This document shows, in pieces, positions 1-11,171 of a stretch of DNA of 64,000 nt. The notes beneath the pieces are model-generated. The model did no database searches. It worked only from the letters and a program-made list of their open reading frames with translations, and was not told the DNA's origin. The stretch comes from Escherichia phage JLBYU40, in sequence record NC_105514.1; one strand, 5' to 3'. The first letter of the stretch is position 1. Every line of letters begins with the position of its first letter. Made by a program: the position numbers and the translations under genes.

Positions 1-15
1 TTTCAACTTTAATTA

Positions 16-750
16 TTACGCAACTTTTAATTTCTCAATATATTGTTGCGGGCTGCAACTATATTCTGCGCGTTCTTCTTCGGTCATACCTTCCCAACAT
101 AATTGCAGGCGGTCGGCTAGGAACTGATAATCATTATCATCCTCAAGAGATTCATCAATAAAGGTTTCACCTATCAATGTCACGCCGATTGATAGAATAT
201 CGTTAACGGCTTGCGCATCCAGCGTTTTAAATCCGTATGATGCCGCCGCTGATAGCACGCCTTTATGATCATCAATCATTGTAAAATCAGCGTTCGGATA
301 TAATTGTTTAAATAATTCAAAATAATAAGATTTATATACTGCGTCCTTGCTGTGGTATATTTCGCTAACCTTATCAGCTTCAAAATATTTGTGTAGTGTA
401 TCGCGGGAAAATACACGGATATTACTATCCCCACGCCCTCGCAATCCTTGTTTACGCAAATAATAATAATCCGACTTGCTCATCAGTCGAGCGGTACAGA
501 TAATGTTTAACGTGTTAACATCATTCATGCACTGGCGCATATATGTAACAAGGGGCAATAGTGTATCTTGCATTATTAAATCATGTTTGCAGGCTTCATT
601 TTTATACTTATTTAAATCTAAATTGCCCTCGCTATCAAAGCAAGGCGCTACACGATGAAACGAATTAATGATAGTGCCGTCCAGATCCCAAATCATGACG
701 CGGGAAATATGCGGGAAATTACGGGTAATATTCGTTTTAACTTGATTCAT
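16..750 (-). CDS. dmp: HAD-superfamily phosphatase, likely 5'-deoxyribonucleotidase (T5 Dmp-like)
   Basis: 244 aa; N-terminal IWDLDGTI (HAD DxDGT motif); first gene of a dmp-A1-A2-like array. Confidence 0.6.
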   Translation of the reverse strand: MNQVKTNITRNFPHISRVMIWDLDGTIINSFHRVAPCFDSEGNLDLNKYKNEACKHDLIMQDTLLPLVTYMRQCMNDVNTLNIICTARLMSKSDYYYLRKQGLRGRGDSNIRVFSRDTLHKYFEADKVSEIYHSKDAVYKSYYFELFKQLYPNADFTMIDDHKGVLSAAASYGFKTLDAQAVNDILSIGVTLIGETFIDESLEDDNDYQFLADRLQLCWEGMTEEERAEYSCSPQQYIEKLKVA

Positions 751-830
751 TTTGTTACGTTCTCCATTTAAGGGATTAGATTAATTCAGCATTACCCGCT
801 ATTTATAAGCGGGTAATAATAAATTAACTA

Positions 831-1223
831 TTAAAGACCATAAGCCAACGCATCAGCGATAAAACTAACATCTTCACCCGATACACTGGAACGAATCCCC
901 GCACAAGTATATACTTTTGCGCTGATCAATTGATCATCAAGACAAGCGGGGCAAGGCGCGACAACTGCAAAGGCTAGGCCGGATTTTACGGCGTCGATGA
1001 TAATCGTTTCTTGTTTCACCGTGTCAACATAAACGCCTGCGGCCTTAATGTAACTACTTGCGCGGCCTTGCGTATAGGCAAAGGTAGTAACCTGCAAAGC
1101 GTCATTAAAGTCTAGTAGTTCATCAATAACGTGCCCTGCCTCGACGTGGTAACGTTCGCCGTTAGAATAAACCAGAACAATTGAGGACTGAGCGCGATCG
1201 AATGGAATATTTTGCTTTTTCAT
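831..1223 (-). CDS. hypothetical pre-early protein
   Basis: 130 aa ORF, co-oriented and tightly packed with neighbours. Confidence 0.45.
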   Translation of the reverse strand: MKKQNIPFDRAQSSIVLVYSNGERYHVEAGHVIDELLDFNDALQVTTFAYTQGRASSYIKAAGVYVDTVKQETIIIDAVKSGLAFAVVAPCPACLDDQLISAKVYTCAGIRSSVSGEDVSFIADALAYGL

Positions 1224-1261
1224 ATTTATATAACTCCAATTAGTTTAATAAGGGGTTTAAT

Positions 1262-1519
1262 TTATTTGATAATAATCTGCATCTGGTACGGCGTTAATTC
1301 ACCGTTTACGGGTAAATTATTATCGCTTAGCCACTCATAAAAAGCACCATCATCATCAAAAGGGACAATATCGTTATCACGGGAATCGACGGAAATAATA
1401 CCATCCGTATTAGTTTTGGCGGCTAGGATAGGCCCGAAGCTGTAAACTTTATCAGATTCCATTTCATCCGGTGAAATGAATACTTTTTCGTCCAATGTTT
1501 TGGGAAGAGTAACTTTCAT
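1262..1519 (-). CDS. hypothetical pre-early protein
   Basis: 85 aa ORF, acidic. Confidence 0.4.
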   Translation of the reverse strand: MKVTLPKTLDEKVFISPDEMESDKVYSFGPILAAKTNTDGIISVDSRDNDIVPFDDDGAFYEWLSDNNLPVNGELTPYQMQIIIK

Positions 1520-1536
1520 TTAATTTAGCTCCTATA

Positions 1537-1562
1537 ATAGCGGCTATATTTCAAGCCGCTAG
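1537..1562 (-). terminator. intergenic hairpin after the A1-like gene
   Basis: 8-bp stem TAGCGGCT/AGCCGCTA with 8-nt loop. Confidence 0.35.
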
Positions 1563-1575
1563 GGGAATAATTTAA

Positions 1576-3330
1576 TTACGCGAAAAATTTACCGTTTTTA
1601 AAGTCAATCAAAGTACGCTGACCGTTTGCATAGGTAATTAAATGCGTTTGCGTCCAGCTTGACGCGCCAACGTTGTAACCCATATCCAGACTACCAGCTA
1701 CGCCAGCGGTATAAACGCCGCCATAAATGCTTGCCGTATGAGTATGCCCTGTGTTTAATTTGCCCAATTTCTTAAATTGTTTCGGGTTGCCACGGCTGCC
1801 GTTAATGCCATTGTGACCGTGTACGCCGCATTCAATGCCTGCAATTTTAAATGATTGGTCAGTTGTTAGAAAAATGGCGTTAAACTCGCAACCTGCAACC
1901 TTACGCAGCGCATAATCTAGCACGTTGAAAGTATCGTCTTTTTCTGCAATAGCTCCATAAATCGCGGCATTTAGGCGGTGATATAGTTCCGCGTTTGCGG
2001 GGTCGTCTTTAATGTTAGCATTACGATCATCCAGCCAACGGGATAGCGCCAAATCGTGATTCGATTCAACAATGATCGTTTGACTAAAATCACGTTCCAT
2101 CGATTCCAGCACGCGCCCCGTATCGATAAGATCATCCAGAACTTTATCACGTCCGGCGGCATACTGTTTTGCTAGGAATACACCCGAAGCGCGGTTGTGA
2201 TGGTTGCGTGATGTAAAGTCGTGAACGTCATGGATAAACTGATATTTTGGTTTAAGAATATCAAGCAAGCTATTTTCGCCAGCCCATGACGCGGCGGCGC
2301 AATCGTCATCTAATTTTTCAGCGTGAATATCACCATATTGCAAGCCTAAAACATGCCCCGATGTTTCATAACATCCGGCGGGAGTGGCGCAAACATTCAG
2401 ATCATAAAACACGCCGCTTTCGTCCATTGTTTCAAGCTGGCGAACAAAAAATTCCCCGTCGTCGTCGAACTCAACAATCAGCGCCCCGAAATTATGCAGT
2501 GCTTCCGCTTTCTGCCCTGCTTTCTGCTGAATGTAATTTTTGAGCGTTGCCGTTCCGGTTGAATACATGCGGCGCACAATTTCACCTTTTAAAGCTGGCA
2601 CGCTTTCGGCGGTGATTTTAGCGTGACCAATTGCCAGACCTTCAAGATTAAGCGCGGTTGCAGTTTCAGCGAATCCAGATAGCGGATAGTCTGCGGTTGG
2701 CAAAACATTAATTTCAGCCATGAAAGCAAAACGGCGATTATTCAAAAACACGTTTTTGCTGCAAATATATTTATCGAACGCGGAATCATATTTTATTCCA
2801 TCCGCGCCCTCGCCATTTTGGAATCCGTTTTTATTATAAATATACTTAGAAACAAGCAAATCAGCGCCACAATATTTAGCATATTGTTCGAGCGAGGACA
2901 AAAAGTTTTTATGCGGGAACGTATTATTCTGAATCGATGTAATAATAAAGCGTTTACCCTGCTTTACTTCCCATTGTTCAACCGTGCTAGAAACAATCCC
3001 CGCCGCTTCTGGGCGCTCATCGTTTTTAATGGCTTTTGCTGCTTTCGCCGCTTTCGGTTTAGCTGGTTTATTTGCTTCCAACCAATCACAAATGGCGGTC
3101 GAGTGTTTTGTTGTATCGTAGACCGCTTTTGATATATCGTCGCAGACCTCCAGTTTAGTGGCGCGCAGACGTTTACCATAGAAATTAAAGTCAGCGGCCA
3201 TTTTCAGGATAGCGGTTTGTTTTTCTGCGGAAATAATCATAGTATAAAACTCCATTAAAGGGACTAGGTTAATAACGGCAATATTGCCAAATATAACGCC
3301 TATTATTTGAGGCGTTATAATTTGCAACAT
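1576..3330 (-). CDS. A1: pre-early A1-like protein with C-terminal metallophosphoesterase motifs
   Basis: 584 aa; C-terminal GVHGHNGINGS...GHTHT calcineurin-like motifs; size and position match T5 A1. Confidence 0.55.
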   Translation of the reverse strand: MLQIITPQIIGVIFGNIAVINLVPLMEFYTMIISAEKQTAILKMAADFNFYGKRLRATKLEVCDDISKAVYDTTKHSTAICDWLEANKPAKPKAAKAAKAIKNDERPEAAGIVSSTVEQWEVKQGKRFIITSIQNNTFPHKNFLSSLEQYAKYCGADLLVSKYIYNKNGFQNGEGADGIKYDSAFDKYICSKNVFLNNRRFAFMAEINVLPTADYPLSGFAETATALNLEGLAIGHAKITAESVPALKGEIVRRMYSTGTATLKNYIQQKAGQKAEALHNFGALIVEFDDDGEFFVRQLETMDESGVFYDLNVCATPAGCYETSGHVLGLQYGDIHAEKLDDDCAAASWAGENSLLDILKPKYQFIHDVHDFTSRNHHNRASGVFLAKQYAAGRDKVLDDLIDTGRVLESMERDFSQTIIVESNHDLALSRWLDDRNANIKDDPANAELYHRLNAAIYGAIAEKDDTFNVLDYALRKVAGCEFNAIFLTTDQSFKIAGIECGVHGHNGINGSRGNPKQFKKLGKLNTGHTHTASIYGGVYTAGVAGSLDMGYNVGASSWTQTHLITYANGQRTLIDFKNGKFFA

Positions 3331-3528
3331 TTAACTAATCGGCATTAGACTAGAACTAACACCACAAACAACGGCGGCAATAAAGCAAAGTAAGCCTAAA
3401 CGCTTTGCCAATTTAGATTTACGTTTAAAATAATATGAATCTAAATCATTTTGAAAATAAGCGAATAGTAATGAGGCCGCCATAATAAATAAACCTAGAA
3501 TTAACGATTCAGTAGGGTAAAAGATCAT
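3331..3528 (-). CDS. small membrane protein
   Basis: 65 aa, two hydrophobic segments; start abuts A1 stop. Confidence 0.4.
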   Translation of the reverse strand: MIFYPTESLILGLFIMAASLLFAYFQNDLDSYYFKRKSKLAKRLGLLCFIAAVVCGVSSSLMPIS

Positions 3529-3582
3529 TTTAATAACTCCTGATTTAAGGGAAGAAAATAACTATCGCTAAACAGTTATATT

Positions 3583-3609
3583 CTTGCCCCCTCACTAGAA
3601 GGGGGCAAG
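3583..3609 (-). terminator. strong hairpin after the A2-like gene
   Basis: 9-bp G/C stem CTTGCCCCC/GGGGGCAAG. Confidence 0.45.
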
Positions 3610-3618
3610 GTATAACTA

Positions 3619-4026
3619 TTATTCGCCTGCGGCTTGTTTCACTTCATCGGCAACGCCTAACAGTTGCGCTACGGCGTCCAGCGTTTCAAGTTTTGCACTT
3701 TCCAGACTTGCCAGATCGTCGGCGTCTTTAATAATGCCGGAATCGATAGCATGTTTAGCAATAACGCGCACGTAATGCGCTTTGCGGATTGAGCTACCGC
3801 CGCCAACTTTACGCGGCTTATCGCTTTTCTGATACGCTTTTGCGCTGGTCAATTTTGACCGAACGGATACGGGAGAAGCCGCGCCAACTGCTTTTGCAAT
3901 TTCTTTTAAACCGTCGCTATTTGCGAAATCTAAACCGTTTTCATTGATTAACTGCTGGTACATAGAAACAGCTTTCTGAGTGTTTTCTTCATTCCATGAG
4001 AATTTTGCGGTTTTAACGTTAGTCAT
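3619..4026 (-). CDS. A2: pre-early A2-like protein
   Basis: 135 aa; synteny downstream of A1-like gene; strong hairpin terminator follows at 3583-3609. Confidence 0.45.
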   Translation of the reverse strand: MTNVKTAKFSWNEENTQKAVSMYQQLINENGLDFANSDGLKEIAKAVGAASPVSVRSKLTSAKAYQKSDKPRKVGGGSSIRKAHYVRVIAKHAIDSGIIKDADDLASLESAKLETLDAVAQLLGVADEVKQAAGE

Positions 4027-4124
4027 GGTAAAAACTCCTATTAGTTTAATTTAAGGGATAAGATTAACATAATGTTAATCATTATATTCCCCATATTTCA
4101 GAGGAATATAAAGTTAACACTAAA

Positions 4125-4376
4125 TTATAAAACAGCTTCCCATTTTTCGTTGCGTTGAACAACCTTTACAACGTCGCCGGATTTAACGCGAACGCTAAAA
4201 ACGGTTTTGCCGTTGTTACTACGTTCATTTTCAGCGTATACCGCGTCGATTGTATCAAACGGCATAAGCGCCGCACCTTTAATACGTTCGGCTTTTCCGG
4301 TTAATTCATCCGTTTTAGTAACGAAAGGAATAAAAACGGATTGACCAATTTTTGGCGCGGTAATAACGTTTTTCAT
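4125..4376 (-). CDS. hypothetical protein
   Basis: 83 aa ORF. Confidence 0.4.
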   Translation of the reverse strand: MKNVITAPKIGQSVFIPFVTKTDELTGKAERIKGAALMPFDTIDAVYAENERSNNGKTVFSVRVKSGDVVKVVQRNEKWEAVL

Positions 4377-4412
4377 AGTATAAACTCCGAGTTATTTGGT
4401 GGATTGTTCCGC

Positions 4413-4439
4413 ATTACCTGCTGGAAAGTAGCAGGTAAT
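4413..4439. terminator. intergenic hairpin
   Basis: 10-bp stem ATTACCTGCT/AGCAGGTAAT with 7-nt loop. Confidence 0.4.
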
Positions 4440-4574
4440 AAGTAACAATCCGCTCGCCAGTATAATCGATTTAAAGAACTCCACGTAGGCCGCTATATCC
4501 CAGTTAGGGGGCGGGATGCATTATGGTAAGCACCGACCGTCAAATTTTATCAAGTTATCGCTCTTATCGAACTG

Positions 4575-4598
4575 GGTACATCTTAAAACCTATCGGCT
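4575..4598. repeat. left arm of 24-bp inverted repeat
   Basis: GGGTACATCTTAAAACCTATCGGC; 23/24 match to the reverse complement of 4841-4864. Confidence 0.7.
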
Positions 4599-4604
4599 AG
4601 GTTG

Positions 4605-4808
4605 TCAAACTATTTTTTGCAGTTTTTTATGATTTTCTTTCAGGTCAATCATAATATTGCGCCAGATCATTTCCAGACCTTGCTGGCGGCCTTTCTTGTA
4701 CTGCTTAAATCGCCATTTTACCGATCTTTGCGCTACTGTCAACAATTTTTTAGTTTCGCTATCCAGTGCCTTGCTAGGTTTACCAGTGATCAATAAAGTT
4801 TGTTTCAT
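4605..4808 (-). CDS. small basic protein flanked by 24-bp inverted repeats
   Basis: 67 aa, K/R-rich; bracketed by near-perfect inverted repeats at 4575-4598 and 4841-4864. Confidence 0.35.
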   Translation of the reverse strand: MKQTLLITGKPSKALDSETKKLLTVAQRSVKWRFKQYKKGRQQGLEMIWRNIMIDLKENHKKLQKIV

Positions 4809-4840
4809 ATCGTCGATTCCTTATATTATATAAGTTTACC

Positions 4841-4864
4841 GCCGATAGGCTTTAAGATGTACCC
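4841..4864. repeat. right arm of 24-bp inverted repeat
   Basis: GCCGATAGGCTTTAAGATGTACCC. Confidence 0.7.
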
Positions 4865-5581
4865 AATTTTTAAAGAGCGTGGCGGTAAACTTCCCGCCGT
4901 GTAGTTCGTCATTGCCGCCCTACGAGGTAAATACTAGCAAATACCAAAAATGGCGCAACCTTATTTTTGTAAAGAAACGTAAAGACACGATTCACCGGAT
5001 GGCGTGCGGCGACCTGGGCGCGGCGCATTAAAATTAAAGGAAACGGGCGCGCGAATACCACAAAACATAGCAGATAGGCAAGTAATTTTTTCATTTATAT
5101 TTGCTTTGCCCTACTTGACAAAATCTAAAAAGCTCAGGGTAGCGATAAACGGGCTATCCCTTTATGATGGGATGCCTGAAAAATTTACCGCGTCAGAAAG
5201 CGTTTTAGGCGGCTTATTTTCGATTTAACAAATATTTAACAAAAGCAAAATTGAAAAATAGTTGAAAAAGGTCTTGACTTTTAAAAATCAAGACTAAACG
5301 AGTTATTTTATAAAATTAATTAATTGACTTTTGTTTGTTGTTGTGTATTAGAAAGATAGCAGACTAATAATTACTAGAATGATAATCATGCTGGTGGATT
5401 GTAACAGCCTGAACCATTAGCAGACTATTAATCACGGAAAATCTCATTAGCCAACTAACTATTTCATGATATATAATATACTTATAAATTAATGAGAAAT
5501 AATAAGTATAATAAATAATAACTACAGTAAATAATAACTATAAGAAATTATCGGCCTAAGTGAGAACCACTATCATTTAAG

Positions 5582-5689
5582 TTATCCACAAGTTTATTAA
5601 CAGCACAAAATGATTTGACACGATAGGCGGCGATATAAAGACTTATCTACAGACTTATCCACAGGTTATCCTACTGTATAAATATACAG
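5582..5689. repeat. left arm of ~110-bp imperfect inverted repeat with DnaA boxes
   Basis: TTATCCACA at 5582-5590 and 5655-5663, TTATCTACA at 5643, palindrome CTGTATAAATATACAG at 5674-5689. Confidence 0.65.
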
Positions 5690-5956
5690 GGTAAATGGGT
5701 AGTATATTATAAGGATGTCGATTTTAAGCGGCCTAAAACGCTTTCTAACGAGCTAAATGCGGTGGGGTAATATTAAAGTAAAGCCTTCACCCGTCGCCCT
5801 GGTGGCTTCGCCGTGTTTTGCTCTTTATTACACCGCTGCGCGGTTATCATAAAAATATGCGCTAGGCAAGGAAAATAAAAAGGTAAAATAATCTTTGCCT
5901 ATGCTAGAAAATTACCTTTATCATTCACTCACCGATTAACGAGGGAGGCTGAACAA

Positions 5957-6967
5957 ATGAGGCTTTATAAACCTGATAATGCCACCGTTTTAAAAGGTGC
6001 ATTGCGCAACCTGCTGGACGGTAGCAAGTCAACCAGCATTAAACATTTTATTAACAAGGTTGAAACTATTCATCAAAACTTTTTTGATGAATATGACGCC
6101 TATGATATGGATAGTTTTCTACCCTTATATAAGCAAGGGGCAACGCTAGTTTTATATAATCGGGATTGCCATATCTTTACAGGCAGGGGAGCGGGACCGG
6201 ATACCGATTTTATTGTTGCGCAGGGCAATACTATTGTTGCGTATCATAGCAATTCAGGCCGTCAATCATTTAATATAAATGCTTTTGAGCTTATTGGGCT
6301 TGATCTTATAAACGGGCTTTCTAGCATTGAGGGATTTTTAGATGTTATCTGGAAGTATTTACCCGCTGGATGGTATAAGCCGGATAATGACGGATCTCAA
6401 TATACCGCTATAATGGCTTTTGATGGCGATGGTAATTTTTTGTTACCTTCGAAATTATACCCTTATGTATATAATGATCTAATAGAAGAGGCTGGTTTTT
6501 CTTTCTGGAAAGATGATGATCAGCCCATTGACAATATAGAAAACCATGCTGTAAATTCTAACACTCAAAGCGTTAACACTCAAACTACTGAAAACAAAGG
6601 AAAAAATACCATGACCAAGATCGCTAATATCGTTGCCGCTAATAAATCCGCCGTTGTAAATGCTGCAAAACTGGAAGCGGGTAAAATTGCACTGACTCAA
6701 ATTACGAAAGTAGCGGCTAAAAAAGCACCGTTCATGATTAAAGGTTATATTGATACACCTATCGGTCGAGTAGTGATTGCCAACCTGCTGAGCGTAGCGG
6801 TTGACCAGTATGCCCCGAACAACCAGAAAGCGAAAGCGGTAGCAGGTGCAGCTATGGAAGCGGCTATGTTAGAAATGGTACAAAGTTTCAATATTGCTGA
6901 AATGATTGATGAAATGGTAAAAGGTATTGATATTTCTACTTTTACTACTAACACTGAAAGCGAGTAA
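5957..6967 (+). CDS. hypothetical pre-early protein (336 aa)
   Basis: RBS GAGGGAGG upstream of ATG; first gene of plus-strand cassette between inverted-repeat arms. Confidence 0.55.
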   Translation: MRLYKPDNATVLKGALRNLLDGSKSTSIKHFINKVETIHQNFFDEYDAYDMDSFLPLYKQGATLVLYNRDCHIFTGRGAGPDTDFIVAQGNTIVAYHSNSGRQSFNINAFELIGLDLINGLSSIEGFLDVIWKYLPAGWYKPDNDGSQYTAIMAFDGDGNFLLPSKLYPYVYNDLIEEAGFSFWKDDDQPIDNIENHAVNSNTQSVNTQTTENKGKNTMTKIANIVAANKSAVVNAAKLEAGKIALTQITKVAAKKAPFMIKGYIDTPIGRVVIANLLSVAVDQYAPNNQKAKAVAGAAMEAAMLEMVQSFNIAEMIDEMVKGIDISTFTTNTESE

Positions 6968-7084
6968 TAAATAATCTAATGTAAAGTTTTGTAAAGGCCG
7001 CCTTTTATGGTGGCCTTTTTTGTTATAATGCCTTTACACCGTTTGAGGACGGTTGAAAATTTCCCAAAAAATTGGAGGCTTAAA

Positions 7085-7315
7085 ATGGTTGCATATTCTT
7101 CTTCTGACGCTCTTTTCACTGGAAAAGGCTGGGTATCAAATCGCTGGATCATTCAAGAAATGGTGCAAGAATACGGCATTGCTAAAACTTACACTACCAT
7201 TCAGGCGCTTTATGATAATGATCAAATCGATCAGCAAACGGCTGGCTTTTTGCTGGATACCCTGAAGGCGGAACATTGCACCAAAAAACAAGCCGCTAAA
7301 ATTATTTTAATGTAA
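7085..7315 (+). CDS. hypothetical protein
   Basis: in-frame ATG at 7085 preceded by RBS TGGAGG; the longer 7007 start lacks an RBS. Confidence 0.45.
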   Translation: MVAYSSSDALFTGKGWVSNRWIIQEMVQEYGIAKTYTTIQALYDNDQIDQQTAGFLLDTLKAEHCTKKQAAKIILM

Positions 7316-7513
7316 TTAATAACGGGGCGTTACTTTCGCCCCACTAACTAGGAGAATGAAAATGGTTATTTTTCGAGCTATTTTAGCGGGTATCTTGGGC
7401 GCTATTTTATCGTTGTTTGCAATAGCTTTCGGTGTTCACGCCGTTATTATCGGCGCGGGGATTGCCATTTTTTCTTATTTGCTGGGCTGCATGACTAGTA
7501 AAGGAGAATAAAA

Positions 7514-7726
7514 ATGATCCGCAACGTTTCTCTTGCTCGTTCGAAAGGCTTTAAGCTGGTGGACGTTAACACGTTCGAGCGTGAAGATTGTAAAATCGAA
7601 TATGTAGCGCGGAATAAAAACGCTTTTCGTGTTACCGAGAAAAAATTCGATAAGCGCGGCAACGTGATAGCTGAAACAGTTAAACATTTTGCCACCTTTT
7701 ACGCTGCGTTTCGTGGGGTACTATGA
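7514..7726 (+). CDS. hypothetical protein
   Basis: 70 aa; RBS AAGGAGA upstream. Confidence 0.45.
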   Translation: MIRNVSLARSKGFKLVDVNTFEREDCKIEYVARNKNAFRVTEKKFDKRGNVIAETVKHFATFYAAFRGVL

Positions 7727-7849
7727 AAAGCGTTATCATTATTATCCTTGCAATGGTTGGCGGTTTTACCGCCACCTTATTTAAAAATGATCCCCTTTTA
7801 CTGGGGATTTTTATGCTTTTATCTGGCTATCTGATTGGGAGGTTATAAA

Positions 7850-8194
7850 ATGGTAATTTATGAAGGCAATCGTTTTGTTGCTAATTGCCGTCCTGCATTG
7901 CTAGCAAATTACTTAAATCAGCTTTCACCAGCTTATAAGGGCGTCATTAATATTTACGAGGGCAAAGCGCATTATAAGATTAATGCGGTCGTTGCCCGTG
8001 AACTAGCGTTTCAATTTTTGACCTTTGCATCTTGTGACGTTCAGGTCATGGGTGAGGCGTTAATTGCAGAAAATGATGATGATTTTATTAACATTTTTCG
8101 CAAGGTATGCACCGAGCGCCTGATAATGAAAGGCGCATATATTCAATCCACTGCGGATAGTATTGAAACAGCGTTTCGAAAGGTGGCGCAATGA
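7850..8194 (+). CDS. hypothetical protein
   Basis: ATG at 7850 preceded by RBS GGGAGG; internal start of the 7835 ORF. Confidence 0.45.
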   Translation: MVIYEGNRFVANCRPALLANYLNQLSPAYKGVINIYEGKAHYKINAVVARELAFQFLTFASCDVQVMGEALIAENDDDFINIFRKVCTERLIMKGAYIQSTADSIETAFRKVAQ

Positions 8195-8367
8195 AAAAGT
8201 TTTTAATAGCTGGCATGTTTCCCTTGTTGCCTTATGTAATTTGCTGGGCTTTATATGCTCATGGTGCTAGTGTTCCCGGTGTGGTGTCATTTGGTGTATC
8301 GGCGGGCTTTCTAGCTGGACTATTGGCAAGCGTATATTTACGCAAATAATTAATAACGGGGGTTATT

Positions 8368-8562
8368 ATGAGCAATAAAATTATTGTAACCAAAACTACC
8401 ACAATGGTTGACGTTTTTTATGTGCCCGATACGCCGGAAAACCGGCAAGCGGTCGAGCGTGGCGAGTATGATAAAGTGATTTATGATCACGATGGTTATT
8501 ATCAGCATTTGGTCGATTCCTACGGGGAGGAGGAGAAGATCACGCATCAATTACCTGACTGA
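8368..8562 (+). CDS. hypothetical protein
   Basis: 64 aa; RBS-like GGGGG upstream; last gene of the cassette. Confidence 0.45.
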   Translation: MSNKIIVTKTTTMVDVFYVPDTPENRQAVERGEYDKVIYDHDGYYQHLVDSYGEEEKITHQLPD

Positions 8563-8705
8563 TAACAAGCGGGGAGCAGATCCCCGTTTTTCACGCCTCC
8601 AGATAAATACCCCTCTGTTTTAGTATCCCCACCAAAATTAAACGCGTTAGAATGCGATTCAGGACGGTTTAGCGGTATATTAGAATTATTCACTACATAG
8701 GAATA

Positions 8706-8813
8706 CTGTATAAATATACAGTAGGATAAGCTGTGGATAAGTCTGTTAATAATGCCTCAAAATGGCTAGGATTTTGTCAAGTCAAATCGTGCTGTTGATA
8801 AGTCTGTGGATAA
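8706..8813. repeat. right arm of ~110-bp imperfect inverted repeat with DnaA boxes
   Basis: same 16-bp palindrome at 8706-8721; TGTGGATAA at 8732-8740 and 8805-8813; shared AACAGCAC...GATTTGAC blocks. Confidence 0.65.
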
Positions 8814-8829
8814 CTTAAATAGCAGTGTT

Positions 8830-8876
8830 TCTCACTTCCATTTTTAAATGCGAGTCATTATCATTTGCATTTCACT
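8830..8876. repeat. 47-bp direct repeat, copy 1
   Basis: TCTCACTTCCATTTTTAAATGCGAGTCATTATCATTTGCATTTCACT. Confidence 0.7.
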
Positions 8877-8933
8877 ATCTAACCGATAATCATTCCACTT
8901 TTTAAATGAGAATCATTTCACTTCCTGAATAGT

Positions 8934-8980
8934 TCTCACTTCCATTTTTAAATGCGAATCATTATCATTTGCATTTCACT
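8934..8980. repeat. 47-bp direct repeat, copy 2
   Basis: identical to copy 1 except one base. Confidence 0.7.
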
Positions 8981-9046
8981 TTTTAAATGAGATTGATTCT
9001 CATTATCATTCGCATTCAAGCGGGCAGGGCAATTGCCCTGCGCTTT

Positions 9047-9647
9047 TGTGCAAATCCGACATTGCTCCACTGGTGTTACGTGTGGGCATGTATGTGCGAA
9101 TCCGACAATTTTTGGTAGTGTGCAAATCCGACCCGAAAAATTTTTATAGTGTGCAAATCCGACAATGAATTTTCCCAAAAACTCCAGCAATCCGATGCTG
9201 CGCATCAATCCTGTGGAATTAGCTAGAATATGTGCAAATCCGACATGGGTTTATTTGTGCGAATCCGACAAGATTTTTGTGACTTTGATTGGAGGGTGTG
9301 TGATTGTATGGGTTTGAGGAGAAGATGAGAGAGTGAGAGAAATTTGAGGGAACTGTGAGAGGGGCGCAGGATTGGTGCGGAGCACCTGATTTGCGGGGAT
9401 TTTGGGGAAGAGTTGAGAAGATTTGGGTTAATTTGAGATAGGTGCAGAAAAAGCGAAATTTTATTAGCTAAAGGGGGTAAAATAGCTTGACAAGTGAAAA
9501 TTTCTGTGGCTCAAAAAACACAAGCAATCATGGGCCTTCGGCCCGAAATAATGCTGCTATTTTCAGGAGAGTAAGAGTTCCTAAAAACTTAGGCGTTTGT
9601 GCAAATCCGACCATAAATTTCTAGAAATGCAGTGTGCAAATCCGACA
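9047..9647. repeat. iteron array: 8 co-oriented copies of TGTGCRAATCCGACM
   Basis: copies near 9047, 9093, 9118, 9150, 9230, 9256, 9598, 9633. Confidence 0.7.
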
Positions 9648-9690
9648 GTAATTTCTGGAAATGTGTTTTCAAAAAATGTTTCCTAGAAAT

Positions 9691-9763
9691 AACCGCCCTC
9701 CCTATAACCGCCCTGTATTAAACCGCCTAGTATATGTTCCTAGAAACTTAGGAGAACCGCCCT
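9691..9763. repeat. cluster of four AACCGCC(C/T) repeats with CTAGAAA palindromes
   Basis: AACCGCCCT at 9691, 9706, 9755 and AACCGCCTA at 9721. Confidence 0.6.
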
Positions 9764-10110
9764 AGAAAGAGCGGTATCTCGTGAGAACTCTGGAGTTTCT
9801 AGGAAAGTGTTATGCCATCCTAGCAGATGAGCGGCAACAGGTGTATCATCTTGAACACAGATATTGCCTTTAAATATTATAAGGTAAATTAAAAGTAAAG
9901 TAGCCCCCATTACATGTGTGCTTACTCGTGGGGCGCGTGATTAATTACGTAAGTCCTCGACTGTCATACCCCTGTTGCTCGGTCGCAAAGAGTTAACGAA
10001 GTCTCGTGTAATAATCATCGCCCCTAGAGTTCAAAACAAGAGTTGTTTTTAATCTATGTGATTATTATAACATGTGCCGCAATGAGTTGTCAAGAAGATT
10101 TTGTTAACGT

Positions 10111-10338
10111 TTATACATCCTCTTCGAGATTGGTATTGGGATCGTAAATTTTCTTAGCTCCTGTATTTAATAGGAATCGCTCTGCAAGTTGTGGGTGAAT
10201 ATCAAAGAACTCTGTGCATCCTTCGAATCCCTTTAAATTACAGCGGTATTTCTTAAAGTAGATATGTGCAGCGGCTTCTAGATCTCTAGGATTATGGGTT
10301 TCATAGATTCCCATACACGTATAAATCGTCAAAACCAC
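10111..10338 (-). CDS. hypothetical protein
   Basis: 75 aa ORF. Confidence 0.35.
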   Translation of the reverse strand: MVLTIYTCMGIYETHNPRDLEAAAHIYFKKYRCNLKGFEGCTEFFDIHPQLAERFLLNTGAKKIYDPNTNLEEDV

Positions 10339-10454
10339 GATAAACTATCTTATCTAAGTTTAGTGTTTGAATCCTATTATGTGGGTTCATACTAATACTG
10401 ATCTTTGTTCTCTTAGGGATCTTCGTCAGATCCCTATTTGCAAGAATATATACT

Positions 10455-11171
10455 TTATATAGTGACATTCTTTCTAGCCTTGAGTTTGATACCGAGAGAT
10501 GCGAAGTAGATATAAGTTGCTAAATAGGACATAGCAGATCCTGTCTCTTCGTAAGACAGAGTCCCTTTCACGTACCGCTCATATTCTGGCTCTAGATTAA
10601 TAATCGTAGTACTTGGCAATCCTAGCGAATTACATAATGATTTGAATGTTTCTTTATCTCTATGAATCGCATAGTGAATGGCTTTCTCTGTAGGAGTTAG
10701 TTCTAGATCTTTGGTAATGGCTACGTGCAAACTCGCTATAGTCATGCCAATTCCACGATACGTTTCTTCCTTATTAAGGGAAGGTTTCTGTTTCTCTAGC
10801 TCAGGAAGATGTGCAAATTCTCCTTTCTTTCTAGGAATCTTATCATCACTAAGTAATGCTGTTAAGAAATCTGTTTCTTCATAGGCTGGGAGCACTTCAT
10901 CAATCAATACTAGAATAGAACTAGCATTGATACCTTTCGCACTAGGATCTAAAGATTTTAACGCTTTATTAGTTTCAACGTAGGAGCCTGCTAATACTAC
11001 CTTTGAGCTATTCCTATCATATTTAATTTTATTAGCTTCCCAACGTGCAGGACGATAATCAGATAGGAACATTACAGCATACTTCTGTTCATCAGTTAGC
11101 TCAGAGAAACATTTCTGGTTTGATTCTTTTGCTAATGCAATAAGATGCTTTAGTTTTTCTGCTTTATTCAT
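10455..11171 (-). CDS. hypothetical early protein
   Basis: 238 aa ORF. Confidence 0.5.
   Translation of the reverse strand: MNKAEKLKHLIALAKESNQKCFSELTDEQKYAVMFLSDYRPARWEANKIKYDRNSSKVVLAGSYVETNKALKSLDPSAKGINASSILVLIDEVLPAYEETDFLTALLSDDKIPRKKGEFAHLPELEKQKPSLNKEETYRGIGMTIASLHVAITKDLELTPTEKAIHYAIHRDKETFKSLCNSLGLPSTTIINLEPEYERYVKGTLSYEETGSAMSYLATYIYFASLGIKLKARKNVTI

Follow-up and report, generated by a model that had tools for sequence, protein, structure and literature searches.

The closest described system to the locus studied here is the pre-early region of phage T5, in which several genes already have a phenotype. Toxicity was reported for genes 008, 011 and 015 in one study (PMC8201957) and for 011, 013 and 015 in another, in which 013 was also lytic (bioRxiv 10.64898/2026.04.02.716235). 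In E. coli, T5 011 is toxic and disorganises the nucleoid (PMC8201957; bioRxiv 10.64898/2026.04.02.716235), and 013 is toxic and lyses the cells on expression (bioRxiv 10.64898/2026.04.02.716235), a toxicity that was not seen by Mahata et al. (PMC8201957). Gene 012 was not toxic in published screens (PMC8201957). The product of gene 015, T5.015, was described by Mahata et al. (2021, PMC8201957) as an Ung-binding, Ung-dependent AP-site nickase. Moreover, a T5 mutant deleted from hegG to 017 is viable, and small plaques appear when this deletion is combined with left-arm deletions (mutant DLDR) (bioRxiv 10.64898/2026.04.02.716235).

Position, gene content and control elements

We compared with T5 a stretch of 64,000 nucleotides of Escherichia phage JLBYU40 (NC_105514.1), hereafter the window, and in particular its plus-strand region 5957-8562. 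Positions 1-9855 of the window are collinear with T5 109-10608 (left terminal repeat), and megablast matches to the region were found in 529 phage records, mostly of Salmonella, Escherichia and Klebsiella phages; the Tequintavirus assignment is that of the records whose taxonomy was read among these 529. The region lies in first-injected terminal-repeat DNA, with the leftward dmp-A1-A2 arm on one side (orthologues of dmp, A1 and A2 on the minus strand, 16-4026) and the injection-stop repeat region on the other (inverted-repeat arms and iss-type repeats at 8685-9654). The initial annotation of this DNA had read it as a plus-strand pre-early cassette of a T5-like phage, and both the collinearity with T5 and the megablast matches bear this out: the region is most probably the rightward pre-early (first-step-transfer) operon, orthologous to T5 genes 011 to 017. 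The description concerns the copy of the cassette at the one genome end that the window spans; in a T5-type operon the region would be duplicated at the right end.

Eight conserved genes occupy 5957-8562 on the plus strand, namely five larger ORFs and three hydrophobic ORFs of 41-52 aa. All lie at, or a few bases from, the places where they had first been called, and their conservation, pN/pS and excess of synonymous variants confirm that they exist. Position, strand, promoter, terminators and gene order are those of T5 (NC_005859, left terminal repeat), and six of the eight proteins have T5 counterparts, with identities of 91, 97, 67, 100, 93 and 92% to T5.011, 012, 013, 014, 015 and 017, respectively. 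The order T5.011-T5.017 is kept, apart from T5.016, which is missing and in whose place a 52-aa gene is found. JLBYU40 also differs from T5 in having no hegG upstream, a 41-aa gene inserted between 014 and 015, and a short (49-aa) allele of 013; within the cassette, the 41-aa and 52-aa micro-ORFs are the only indels relative to T5. From the 49-aa ORF through the 52-aa ORF the genes are separated by gaps of at most 3 nt or joined by ATGA overlaps, and an 18-nt spacer precedes the 64-aa gene.

This cassette is already known: each of the eight ORFs has matches among the PHROG families, and GenBank annotates at least seven of them, seven being exact protein matches to JLBYU40 CDSs and the 49/51-aa ORF having no exact match. 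Given these PHROG families, and given that the 336-aa protein belongs to a Pfam family, the claim that the genes hold no recognisable motifs is, in a narrow sense, incorrect. As for the micro-ORFs, which had been called unlisted, this was true of the ORF list then in use, but the 41-aa and 52-aa ones are the GenBank genes JLBYU40_14 and JLBYU40_16.

The operon appears to be driven by a sigma-70 promoter upstream of 011, as in T5, where this promoter was experimentally characterised according to Annor et al. (bioRxiv 10.64898/2026.04.02.716235). The promoter and operon leader (5872-5956, plus strand) match the annotated T5 promoter 6411-6489 at 83 of 84 T5 bases with one 1-nt gap, and present a -35 hexamer TTGCCT (5895-5900), a -10 hexamer TATCAT (5919-5924) and the downstream SD GAGGGAGG. 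Behind the first gene stands a Rho-independent terminator (6993-7029, plus strand), made of a hairpin at 6993-7018 with a 10-bp stem (6 GC pairs) and a T-run; the hairpin aligns to the annotated T5 terminator 7534-7559 with its stem pairing preserved. A candidate extended -10 element, TGTTATAAT (7021-7029, plus strand), overlaps this terminator and may constitute an internal promoter. At the end of the operon, the hairpin CGGGGA-GCAGA-TCCCCG followed by TTTTT (8570-8591, plus strand) aligns to the annotated T5 terminator 9275-9296.

The cassette is enclosed by a 153-nt inverted repeat, whose arms are 73% complementary. The left arm (5558-5710) matches T5 9542-9411 in inverted orientation, corresponds to the IRC-spacer-IRD of Davison (bioRxiv 10.1101/866236) and contains TTATCCACA motifs that resemble DnaA boxes, and the right arm (8685-8837), IRD'-spacer-IRC' with DnaA boxes, is the beginning of the injection-stop-signal repeat region. 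An Rfam scan of 5000-10000 gave nothing near any gathering score. That the 15-mer TAATTAATAACGGGG might be an intergenic motif recurring throughout the genome was considered and rejected, only two exact copies being found, both within the cassette.

The larger proteins and the nickase label

The first gene (5957-6967, plus strand) encodes the 336-aa T5.011 orthologue, a full-length member of DUF7566 (PF24450; E = 2.6e-114, 382.7 bits against a cut-off of 27, residues 2-336 corresponding to profile positions 5-336) and of phrog_4263 and phrog_16673. Its N-terminal half is lineage-specific and is joined by a low-complexity linker to a helical domain at the C-terminus (about residues 205-336). 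Only this C-terminal third of DUF7566 is widespread, being found in 688 clusters either alone or fused to varied N-termini, HIRAN among them. HIRAN is a DNA-binding domain; Pfam found none in the 336-aa protein, and it occurs only in distant relatives sharing the C-terminal domain. The GenBank label of UGO56125.1, DNA N6-adenine methyltransferase, was rejected, since no methyltransferase family matched in Pfam at E-values up to 1 or in NCBIfam at E-values up to 0.1, and no PDB relative was found for it either. Remote homology search and structure prediction, which the initial annotation had proposed for this protein, gave no answer: sequence and profile searches of the PDB returned no relative (best E-value 1.2), and the full-length AlphaFold2 model, built from a 30-sequence alignment, had a pLDDT of 50.7 and was for that reason left out of the fold search. 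From these analyses, neither a fold nor a function could be assigned to it.

The 70-aa basic protein (pI 10.0; 7514-7726, plus strand), the T5.014 orthologue, and the 114-aa protein (7850-8194, plus strand), a full-length T5.015 orthologue, are encoded by the pair of genes under the strongest constraint in the cassette, each present in 26 of 26 loci with a pN/pS of 0.09. Searching the PDB with both gave no match. By its relation to T5.015, the 114-aa ORF is a predicted Ung-dependent AP-site nickase, although database labels contradict each other on this point. RefSeq and PHROGs (phrog_4227) put the Ung-dependent endonuclease name on the 70-aa protein (T5.014), whereas UniRef gives the name "DNA-(apurinic or apyrimidinic site) endonuclease" to the 114-aa ORF and T5.015 alike; as the same function is thereby placed on the neighbours T5.014 and T5.015, one label must be wrong. 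The main text of the nickase paper gives neither size nor residue numbers for the protein (PMC8201957). The list of genes that Mahata et al. cloned or omitted (001, 004, 006 and 010 omitted) fits the NC_005859 numbering, NC_005859.1 is the record cited by Annor et al. (bioRxiv 10.64898/2026.04.02.716235), and in another T5 record the 70-aa protein is called "ORF015". The logic of the locus tags favours the 114-aa protein as the nickase, and the label on the 70-aa protein probably stems from a numbering mix-up. This mislabel spreads via automated annotation, and correcting it would be worthwhile.

Two further genes encode small proteins. For the 76-aa soluble T5.012 orthologue (7085-7315, plus strand; pN/pS 0.16), a mechanical ORF list had placed the start at 7007, while the SD match (-9.3 kcal/mol) and the T5.012 orthologue support 7085. 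The last gene of the cassette encodes the 64-aa T5.017 orthologue, an acidic protein (pI 4.7; 8368-8562, plus strand). NCBIfam and Pfam searches with the seven small proteins returned sub-threshold noise only.

The three hydrophobic micro-genes

The 49-aa protein (7362-7511, plus strand; phrog_5607, E = 2.7e-31) corresponds to T5.013 (hhalign 99.9%), which in T5 has 59 aa and is annotated with two transmembrane domains. The SD supports a start at 7362, as the ATG upstream at 7356 has a poor SD spacing. The 41-aa gene (phrog_19184; 7723-7848, plus strand) has its start codon in an ATGA that also contains the stop of the 70-aa gene. Its family is found in 158 phage records, with homologues in Epseptimavirus at about 50% identity that conserve GGF...FKxDP...GYLxGRL, and the near-repeat GGGGTGTTATAAAATG / GGGAGGTTATAAAATG flanks the module. 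The 52-aa gene (phrog_35622; 8191-8349, plus strand) overlaps the stop of the 114-aa gene in the same manner, and its product contains the glycine-zipper motif G35xxxG39xxxG43xxxS47. Its family is confined to 41 phage records, all at least 90% identical, and to 3 clusters among 5.8 billion proteins.

ORFs of only 41-52 codons could be chance open frames in intergenic gaps, and the exact 51-aa translation from 7356 is indeed missing from the protein collection; a tblastn search of the phage collection with the 49-aa protein gave no matches, presumably because of low-complexity masking, so that local loci were used instead. On the contrary, the micro-ORFs are open in every relative carrying them, and synonymous variants are in excess in each: pN/pS, which ranges from 0.08 to 0.31 across all eight ORFs, is 0.12 for the 49-aa ORF (binomial P = 1e-9), 0.31 for the 41-aa ORF (P = 5e-5) and 0.08 for the 52-aa ORF (P = 2e-8), the last statistics resting on 24 variant sites because the family is so narrow. 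In addition, each micro-ORF has a PHROG family of its own and an SD site, two are exact JLBYU40 GenBank CDSs, related phages have annotated homologues of all three, and the orthologue 013 has a phenotype. Chance frames are therefore extremely improbable, and the data support the three micro-ORFs as genuine genes under purifying selection.

The initial annotation had given each micro-ORF its own RBS. SD/anti-SD duplex energies at the eight starts range from -6.1 to -11.4 kcal/mol, compared with an average of -2.1 (sd 3.1) kcal/mol for 85 ATGs in 5000-9000, and in this sense the claim is correct; it needs tempering for the 41-aa and 52-aa ORFs, whose matches are moderate (-6.1 and -7.2 kcal/mol) and which start by ATGA overlap with the preceding stop codon, here and in nearly all relatives examined. 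It is from their conservation only that we infer the translation of these two ORFs. In the RNA-seq rows examined for Bas33 (PMC13250531), bas33_0173, which is homologous to the 41-aa protein, scores 1.6, its neighbours reaching about 320-600; this is probably a read-assignment artefact of a 126-nt overlapped gene.

This arrangement raises the question whether the act of translation alone matters, the two ORFs passing ribosomes onward, from 014 to 015 in one case and from 015 to 017 in the other, while their peptides have no function. Both end 1-18 nt before the next start, in addition to the ATGA overlap at their own start, and a predicted stem (about 7619-7636 with 7717-7735; z = -2.1) covers the start codon of the 41-aa ORF. 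We nonetheless regard such a relay as very improbable, considering that the pN/pS values indicate selection at the amino-acid level, that the hairpin pattern and specific motifs are preserved at about 50% identity, and that in phages lacking these ORFs the same junction sequence directly couples 014 to 015 and 015 to 017, so that no relay ORF is needed.

The peptides themselves are predicted to be two-helix membrane hairpins. GRAVY is 1.16-1.74 for the three micro-proteins, the highest value being that of the 49-aa protein, which forms one unbroken 44-residue hydrophobic stretch, while the 41-aa and 52-aa proteins have two stretches each. These last two share with T5.013 the size class, the hairpin hydropathy and the operon, but no sequence relation could be detected between the two, or of either to 013; paralogy among the three families was ruled out (hhalign probability at most 14%). 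In size, two-helix hairpin and glycine-zipper or small-xxx-small motifs they resemble holins, viroporins and small membrane-permeabilising phage proteins, a likeness that is functional only; one family member, T5 013, causes lysis when over-expressed. Unlike holins, they would be expressed first rather than last, in a host that must live about 40 more minutes. No holin-family match was found in Pfam or PHROGs, no endolysin is nearby, and the operon is pre-early.

A proposed role in host takeover

We consider it highly likely that the cassette is a non-essential, modular accessory set for host takeover, lying outside the essential A1/A2 machinery and including micro-proteins that would act on the inner membrane. 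The initial annotation had proposed candidates for undescribed host-takeover or anti-defence factors; host takeover rather than housekeeping is retained here, but "undescribed" was an overstatement, since T5.015 has been published (PMC8201957), as has the toxicity of 011, 013 and 015 (bioRxiv 10.64898/2026.04.02.716235).

Under this proposal, host RNA polymerase would transcribe the operon during the first minutes, ahead of the entry of the remaining genome; the first terminator would lower the dose of the genes downstream, and the candidate extended -10 element just past it may add transcripts. The two micro-ORFs absent from T5 would be translated by ribosomes terminating on the preceding gene (translational coupling). 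The products would then be a two-domain DUF7566 protein, toxic and nucleoid-disorganising in T5, with a C-terminal helical domain common to hundreds of phage protein clusters; a T5.015-type nickase, which would bind host Ung and cut the abasic sites made by Ung, leading to arrest of host replication and division; three small soluble proteins (76, 70 and 64 aa); and three unrelated inner-membrane hairpin proteins of 41-52 aa. The latter may insert N-in/C-in as helical hairpins, oligomerise via small-xxx-small or glycine-zipper faces and, at an early stage of infection, perturb the integrity of the inner membrane or host factors bound to the membrane, a mode of action suggested by the lytic phenotype of T5.013. 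This membrane mechanism is extrapolated from one orthologue, 013, over-expressed from a plasmid.

The slot after 015, which holds the 52-aa gene here and the T5.016 region in T5, is hypervariable, different small genes being found in different phages, and in this it resembles an arms-race locus. At least one gene of the cassette, micro-ORFs included, might neutralise restriction-modification or other host immunity while DNA transfer pauses after the first step. Restriction of types I, II and III is resisted by Tequintaviruses except where the sites are in first-injected DNA, and the factor responsible is presumably expressed from this same DNA (PMC10644984); moreover, Annor et al. noted that dispensable genes may matter in defence-carrying hosts (bioRxiv 10.64898/2026.04.02.716235). 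An anti-defence function is nevertheless distinctly unlikely. Phages of the genus Epseptimavirus, reported to be sensitive to restriction (PMC10644984), likewise carry the 41-aa family, 014 and 015, and a putatively DT57C-type locus (L030) is without 011, 012, the 52-aa gene and 017, while DT57C is restriction-resistant (PMC10644984). With the 52-aa gene in 41 records only, this distribution argues against the micro-ORFs as a genus-wide Tequintavirus anti-restriction factor, and Pfam, PHROGs and NCBIfam gave no homology to known anti-defence proteins.

Another possibility is superinfection exclusion, in which the inner-membrane hairpins would block DNA entry by competing phages once the first DNA is inside. 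Known exclusion proteins are small, membrane-located, early, non-essential and patchy in distribution, T4 Imm being a functional parallel. The micro-proteins are likewise small, located at the inner membrane, expressed first, non-essential, patchy and replaceable in the slot by other, unrelated small membrane proteins, and, if exclusion were true, their diversity would reflect competition among related phages. However, T5's own second-step DNA crosses the same membrane minutes later, the sole known phenotype of a family member (013) is lysis or toxicity, and no sequence similarity to exclusion proteins was found in Pfam or PHROGs, which makes exclusion clearly improbable.

With host takeover as the preferred reading, the cassette as such adds nothing new to the T5 picture, being annotated, with one biochemically characterised gene and three published toxicity phenotypes, and dispensable in the laboratory. 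The 41-aa and 52-aa micro-genes are conserved membrane genes that T5 does not have; as they are absent from the model phage, every published T5 screen has missed them. In other T5-like phages, unrelated micro-genes of 53, 45 and 39 aa are found either at the same junction or at the one beside it (after 015, or 014-015). It is possible, if unlikely, that such stop-start-coupled micro-proteins are fast-turnover pre-early membrane effectors, swapped at fixed recombination junctions and each countering a different membrane-level threat. If so, the threats would be membrane-acting abortive-infection effectors or competing phages, and the diversity of anti-defence or exclusion micro-genes would have a hot spot at the junction that follows 015. 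The fixed ATGA-coupled junctions, at least one of which (after 015) swaps unrelated small genes, provide a concrete shortlist of candidates for membrane-level, exclusion or counter-defence functions encoded in first-injected DNA.

Identity and layout of the cassette

The plus-strand cassette at 5957-8562 is the known T5.011-T5.017 operon, whose genes are annotated and whose functions are partly known. The five larger ORFs and three micro-ORFs described in the initial annotation were all found, and its placement of the cassette was also correct. In order, all on the plus strand, they are the 336-aa ORF (5957-6967), the 76-aa ORF (7085-7315), the 49-aa micro-ORF (7362-7511), the 70-aa ORF (7514-7726), the 41-aa micro-ORF (7723-7848), the 114-aa ORF (7850-8194), the 52-aa micro-ORF (8191-8349) and the 64-aa ORF (8368-8562). 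A mechanical ORF list extended three of them to starts at 7007, 7356 and 7835 (a TTG), but the shorter starts are the ones backed by Shine-Dalgarno pairing and by the T5 orthologues. Energies of pairing with the 16S 3' end lay between -6.1 and -11.4 kcal/mol for the eight starts, against a mean of -2.1 (sd 3.1) for 85 ATGs in 5000-9000. The statement that each micro-ORF has its own ribosome site needs qualification, as the 41-aa and 52-aa ORFs have moderate sites only and start by an ATGA overlap on the preceding stop codon.

Each ORF matched its own PHROG family (in ORF order phrog_4263, 5145, 5607, 4227, 19184, 4379, 35622 and 6973), and the 336-aa protein is a full-length member of Pfam DUF7566. 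Identity to T5 was 91% for 011, 97% for 012, 67% for 013, 100% for 014, 93% for 015 and 92% for 017, while protein comparison with T5 gave no counterpart of the 41-aa and 52-aa ORFs. These two are nonetheless annotated CDSs in JLBYU40 and many further phages, and by exact-sequence comparison seven of the eight products were identical to JLBYU40 proteins, including UGO56125.1 and JLBYU40_14 to JLBYU40_17, which are encoded on a contig of 109,776 bp. Considering family membership, T5 identities and annotated CDSs, the cassette is therefore already catalogued, and the idea that it holds undescribed factors had to be abandoned.

A megablast search with 5400-9000 returned 529 phage records, mostly of Salmonella, Escherichia and Klebsiella phages, the top ones at ~92% identity; all records whose taxonomy was checked were Tequintavirus. 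Local blastn showed that 109-10608 of phage T5 (NC_005859), which is its left terminal repeat and first-step-transfer DNA, is collinear with window 1-9855. The cassette lies between the minus-strand arm of dmp, A1 and A2 orthologues (16-4026) and the injection-stop repeat region. Set against T5, exactly two of its segments are inserted or replaced, 7729-7837 and 8196-8347, and these are the 41-aa and 52-aa micro-ORFs. Also missing is T5 hegG (T5.010), an HNH homing-endonuclease gene that splits the T5 repeat regions (window ~5328-5416 versus T5 5419-6018); window 5230-5950 is a continuous, AT-rich and repeat-rich non-coding stretch.

The 85 nt 5' of the first gene match 83 of the 84 bases of T5's annotated promoter with one gap, with hexamers TTGCCT and TATCAT, and the T5 promoter upstream of 011 has been described as experimentally characterised (bioRxiv 10.64898/2026.04.02.716235). 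A strong hairpin with a T-run 3' of the first gene (6993-7018, plus strand) and the operon-end terminator (8570-8591, plus strand) both align to annotated T5 terminators. Just past the first one, TGTTATAAT (7021-7029) forms a perfect extended -10 element that is also present in T5, a candidate internal promoter. The whole cassette is bracketed by a 153-nt inverted repeat (5558-5710 / 8685-8837, 73% complementary) with DnaA-box-like motifs TTATCCACA and TGTGGATAA. Its arms correspond to Davison's IRC-spacer-IRD and IRD'-spacer-IRC', described as carrying DnaA boxes with highly variable spacing between the arms and proposed to be part of the injection stop signal (bioRxiv 10.1101/866236). Beyond the cassette, the non-coding stretch 8829-9654 contains injection-stop-type repeats, namely two 67-nt direct repeats (8829-8895 and 8933-8999) and, from 9045 to 9654, a TGTGC(A/G)AATCCGAC unit that is present eight times.

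The micro-ORFs as genes and predicted membrane proteins

Among 36 related loci from IMG/VR, we analysed the 26 with full flanks on both sides. Genes 014 and 015 were present in all 26, a 013 type in 23 (in two allelic forms), the 41-aa ORF in 15 and the 52-aa ORF in 8. Every full-length micro-ORF copy retained an open frame, some 41-aa copies being lengthened to 43-47 aa. Summed pairwise pN/pS was 0.12 for the 49-aa, 0.31 for the 41-aa and 0.08 for the 52-aa ORF, with accepted larger genes at 0.09-0.17, and synonymous changes were in excess among distinct single-site variants (P = 1e-9, 5e-5 and 2e-8, respectively). These selection statistics contradict the view that the micro-ORFs are chance ORFs, as does the direct coupling of the flanking genes in phages without them, and we give this view almost no weight. 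The same two observations contradict a purely regulatory relay function, which we consider very improbable.

Searched by tblastn, the 41-aa protein had matches in 158 phage records, 39 of them below 60% identity; two low-identity records that we examined were Epseptimavirus phages and kept the pattern GGF..T.FK.DP..LG....GYL.GRL. BF23 and Bas32 are also carriers of the 41-aa gene. The 52-aa protein matched only 41 records, all at 90% identity or more, and a set of 5.8 billion proteins contains just three 90% clusters of it, so that its family is, judged by this count, young and narrow.

In the Salmonella phage vB_STy-RN29 (Epseptimavirus; locus L041:1382-1623) we also noticed a homologue of the 41-aa protein that is 46 aa long, is not annotated and has a TTG start. 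Ahead of it, a second unannotated hydrophobic micro-ORF, 39 aa as read from the sequence, overlaps the 014 stop by ATGA. Because of this arrangement, chains of coupled membrane micro-ORFs seem general in the cassette operon. In a Bas33 RNA-seq table (PMC13250531), the 41-aa homologue bas33_0173 has a value of ~1.6 and its operon neighbours ~320-600; the low value probably reflects the discarding of reads overlapping two features, this 126-nt gene overlapping its neighbour, rather than silence.

All three micro-proteins are hydrophobic (GRAVY 1.16-1.74). In the 41-aa and 52-aa proteins, a short polar turn lies between two hydrophobic stretches; in the 49-aa protein, a single stretch runs without a break over 44 residues, and for the T5 orthologue of this protein two transmembrane domains are annotated. 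Basic residues at either end suggest an N-in/C-in hairpin topology. Glycine-zipper and small-xxx-small motifs mediate helix packing, and reading the sequences revealed G35xxxG39xxxG43xxxS47 in the 52-aa protein and small-xxx-small ladders in the other two. Profile-profile comparison matched the 49-aa family to T5.013 (99.9%) and gave no kinship among the three micro-protein families (probability at most 14%).

Gene modules at the junctions around 015

Phages without the 41-aa gene have CGTGGGGTGTTATAAAATGGT at the 014/015 junction, whereas those with it have GGGGTACTATGA at the gene start and GGGAGGTTATAAAATGGT at the gene end. A near-repeat thus borders the 41-aa module and keeps the ribosome site of 015 intact. 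In a predicted RNA stem (7619-7636 / 7717-7735), part of the 014 coding sequence pairs with the Shine-Dalgarno sequence and start codon of the 41-aa ORF; the 7600-7760 region has an MFE of -44.6 kcal/mol (z = -2.1, with 5 of 200 shuffles folding as well). This stem, in which the 014 side is almost invariant, could enforce translational coupling.

The slot directly after 015 always has the same ATGA start, and its contents vary by phage. In some phages it is empty and 017 is coupled directly; in others it is occupied by one of two unrelated hairpins (the 52-aa one or another of 53 aa), by a 45-aa protein whose C-terminal segment is hydrophobic, by a 31-aa ORF that is conserved, or by soluble proteins of 66-87 aa. 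The 31-aa ORF, MKLYIFVGNVEAANDSAGGDNVRHYWQKYIY, overlaps the 015 stop by ATGA in T5 (locus L033:4342-4437, ~8642-8737 of NC_005859) and in eight further loci (L007, L013, L024, L030, L021, L026, L028 and L034); the window lacks it. Its 96-nt stretch has a pN/pS of 0.27 in its own frame versus 1.35 in the frame of the overlapping annotated T5.016, a gene reported as rare within the family (bioRxiv 10.64898/2026.04.02.716235). T5 may possess an unannotated 31-aa micro-gene, and the start of T5.016 may be misplaced.

An exact 15-nt repeat, TAATTAATAACGGGG, occurs at 7313-7327 and 8347-8361, starting with the TAA stop of the 76-aa and 52-aa genes, respectively; the 64 kb contain no further exact copy, and in many relatives the linker ahead of 017 resembles 'AATAACGG.G.GTTA'. 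The 15-nt repeat may serve as a recombination junction at which gene modules are exchanged.

Proposed functions of the operon in light of T5

In T5, 015 binds Ung and nicks Ung-made abasic sites, arresting replication and division (Mahata et al., PMC8201957). Which ORF carries this activity is labelled inconsistently: the name 'endonuclease nicking abasic sites generated by host Ung' goes to the 70-aa T5.014 in RefSeq NC_005859 and in phrog_4227, UniRef gives 'DNA-(apurinic or apyrimidinic site) endonuclease' to the 114-aa T5.015, and another T5 record calls the 70-aa protein 'ORF015'. The cloned-gene list of Mahata et al. omits 001, 004, 006 and 010 (PMC8201957), which in NC_005859 numbering are dmp, A1, A2 and hegG, and Annor et al. 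cite NC_005859.1 explicitly (bioRxiv 10.64898/2026.04.02.716235). On these locus-tag grounds we favour the 114-aa protein as the nickase and consider the label on the 70-aa protein a likely numbering error. We observed that this label is spreading via automated annotation; in several RefSeq records the endonuclease name sits on the gene that overlies the 41-aa match. One Epseptimavirus record names the 014 orthologue 'minor tail protein'.

Remote homology and structure prediction were proposed for the 336-aa protein in the initial annotation. At full length the protein gave a poor model (pLDDT 50.7); its C-terminal domain, modelled from a deeper alignment, folded confidently (pLDDT 88.9) into a bundle of helices, one of them 40 residues long. 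When 1.84 billion representatives were searched with a profile, 688 clusters were hit. In most of them only residues ~200-330 are matched; the proteins measure 84-544 aa and have varied N-termini or none, and standalone versions of 110-140 aa exist. Five of 42 sampled proteins bear an N-terminal HIRAN domain, a fusion noted in distant relatives of the C-terminal domain (L039:6001-7401; proteins P0340, P0359, P0370 and P0378); one of these is surrounded by a series of small hypothetical genes on a contig of 52 kb judged phage-like. We infer that 011 is a two-module protein with a shared, probably partner-binding C-terminal domain. The GenBank name of UGO56125.1, 'putative DNA N-6-adenine methyltransferase', was unsupported in Pfam, NCBIfam and PDB searches.

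Annor et al. found 011, 013 and 015 among seven toxic T5 genes, 011 giving uneven nucleoids and 013, with two transmembrane domains, lysed ghost cells; their T5 DLDR, with hegG-017 and left-arm deletions and keeping only 009, hdi, A2 and A1, was viable with smaller plaques (bioRxiv 10.64898/2026.04.02.716235). By CRISPRi-ART in T5, the top fitness genes were early-infection genes, notably A1 and A2 (PMC11879866). At most, the HIRAN fusions together with the uneven nucleoids seen in T5 hint at DNA-related targets of 011. Extrapolating from lysis upon 013 over-expression, the 41-aa and 52-aa proteins may perturb the membrane. A role in superinfection exclusion is an unlikely alternative, to which we assign about the same low probability as to an anti-defence role. 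Tequintaviruses are resistant to restriction except where the first-injected DNA itself contains sites, a resistance put down to a factor presumably expressed from that DNA (PMC10644984); the distribution among loci and phage records speaks against the micro-ORFs being the genus-wide anti-restriction factor.

In the scenario of host attack that we prefer, host RNA polymerase would transcribe the operon right after first-step transfer, terminators would set gene dosage, and the packed genes would be translated by coupling. The host chromosome would then be attacked by 015 with Ung and by 011, and the inner membrane by the three hairpin micro-proteins. What keeps this otherwise known operon of interest is two unstudied membrane micro-genes absent from T5, together with the swap site after 015.
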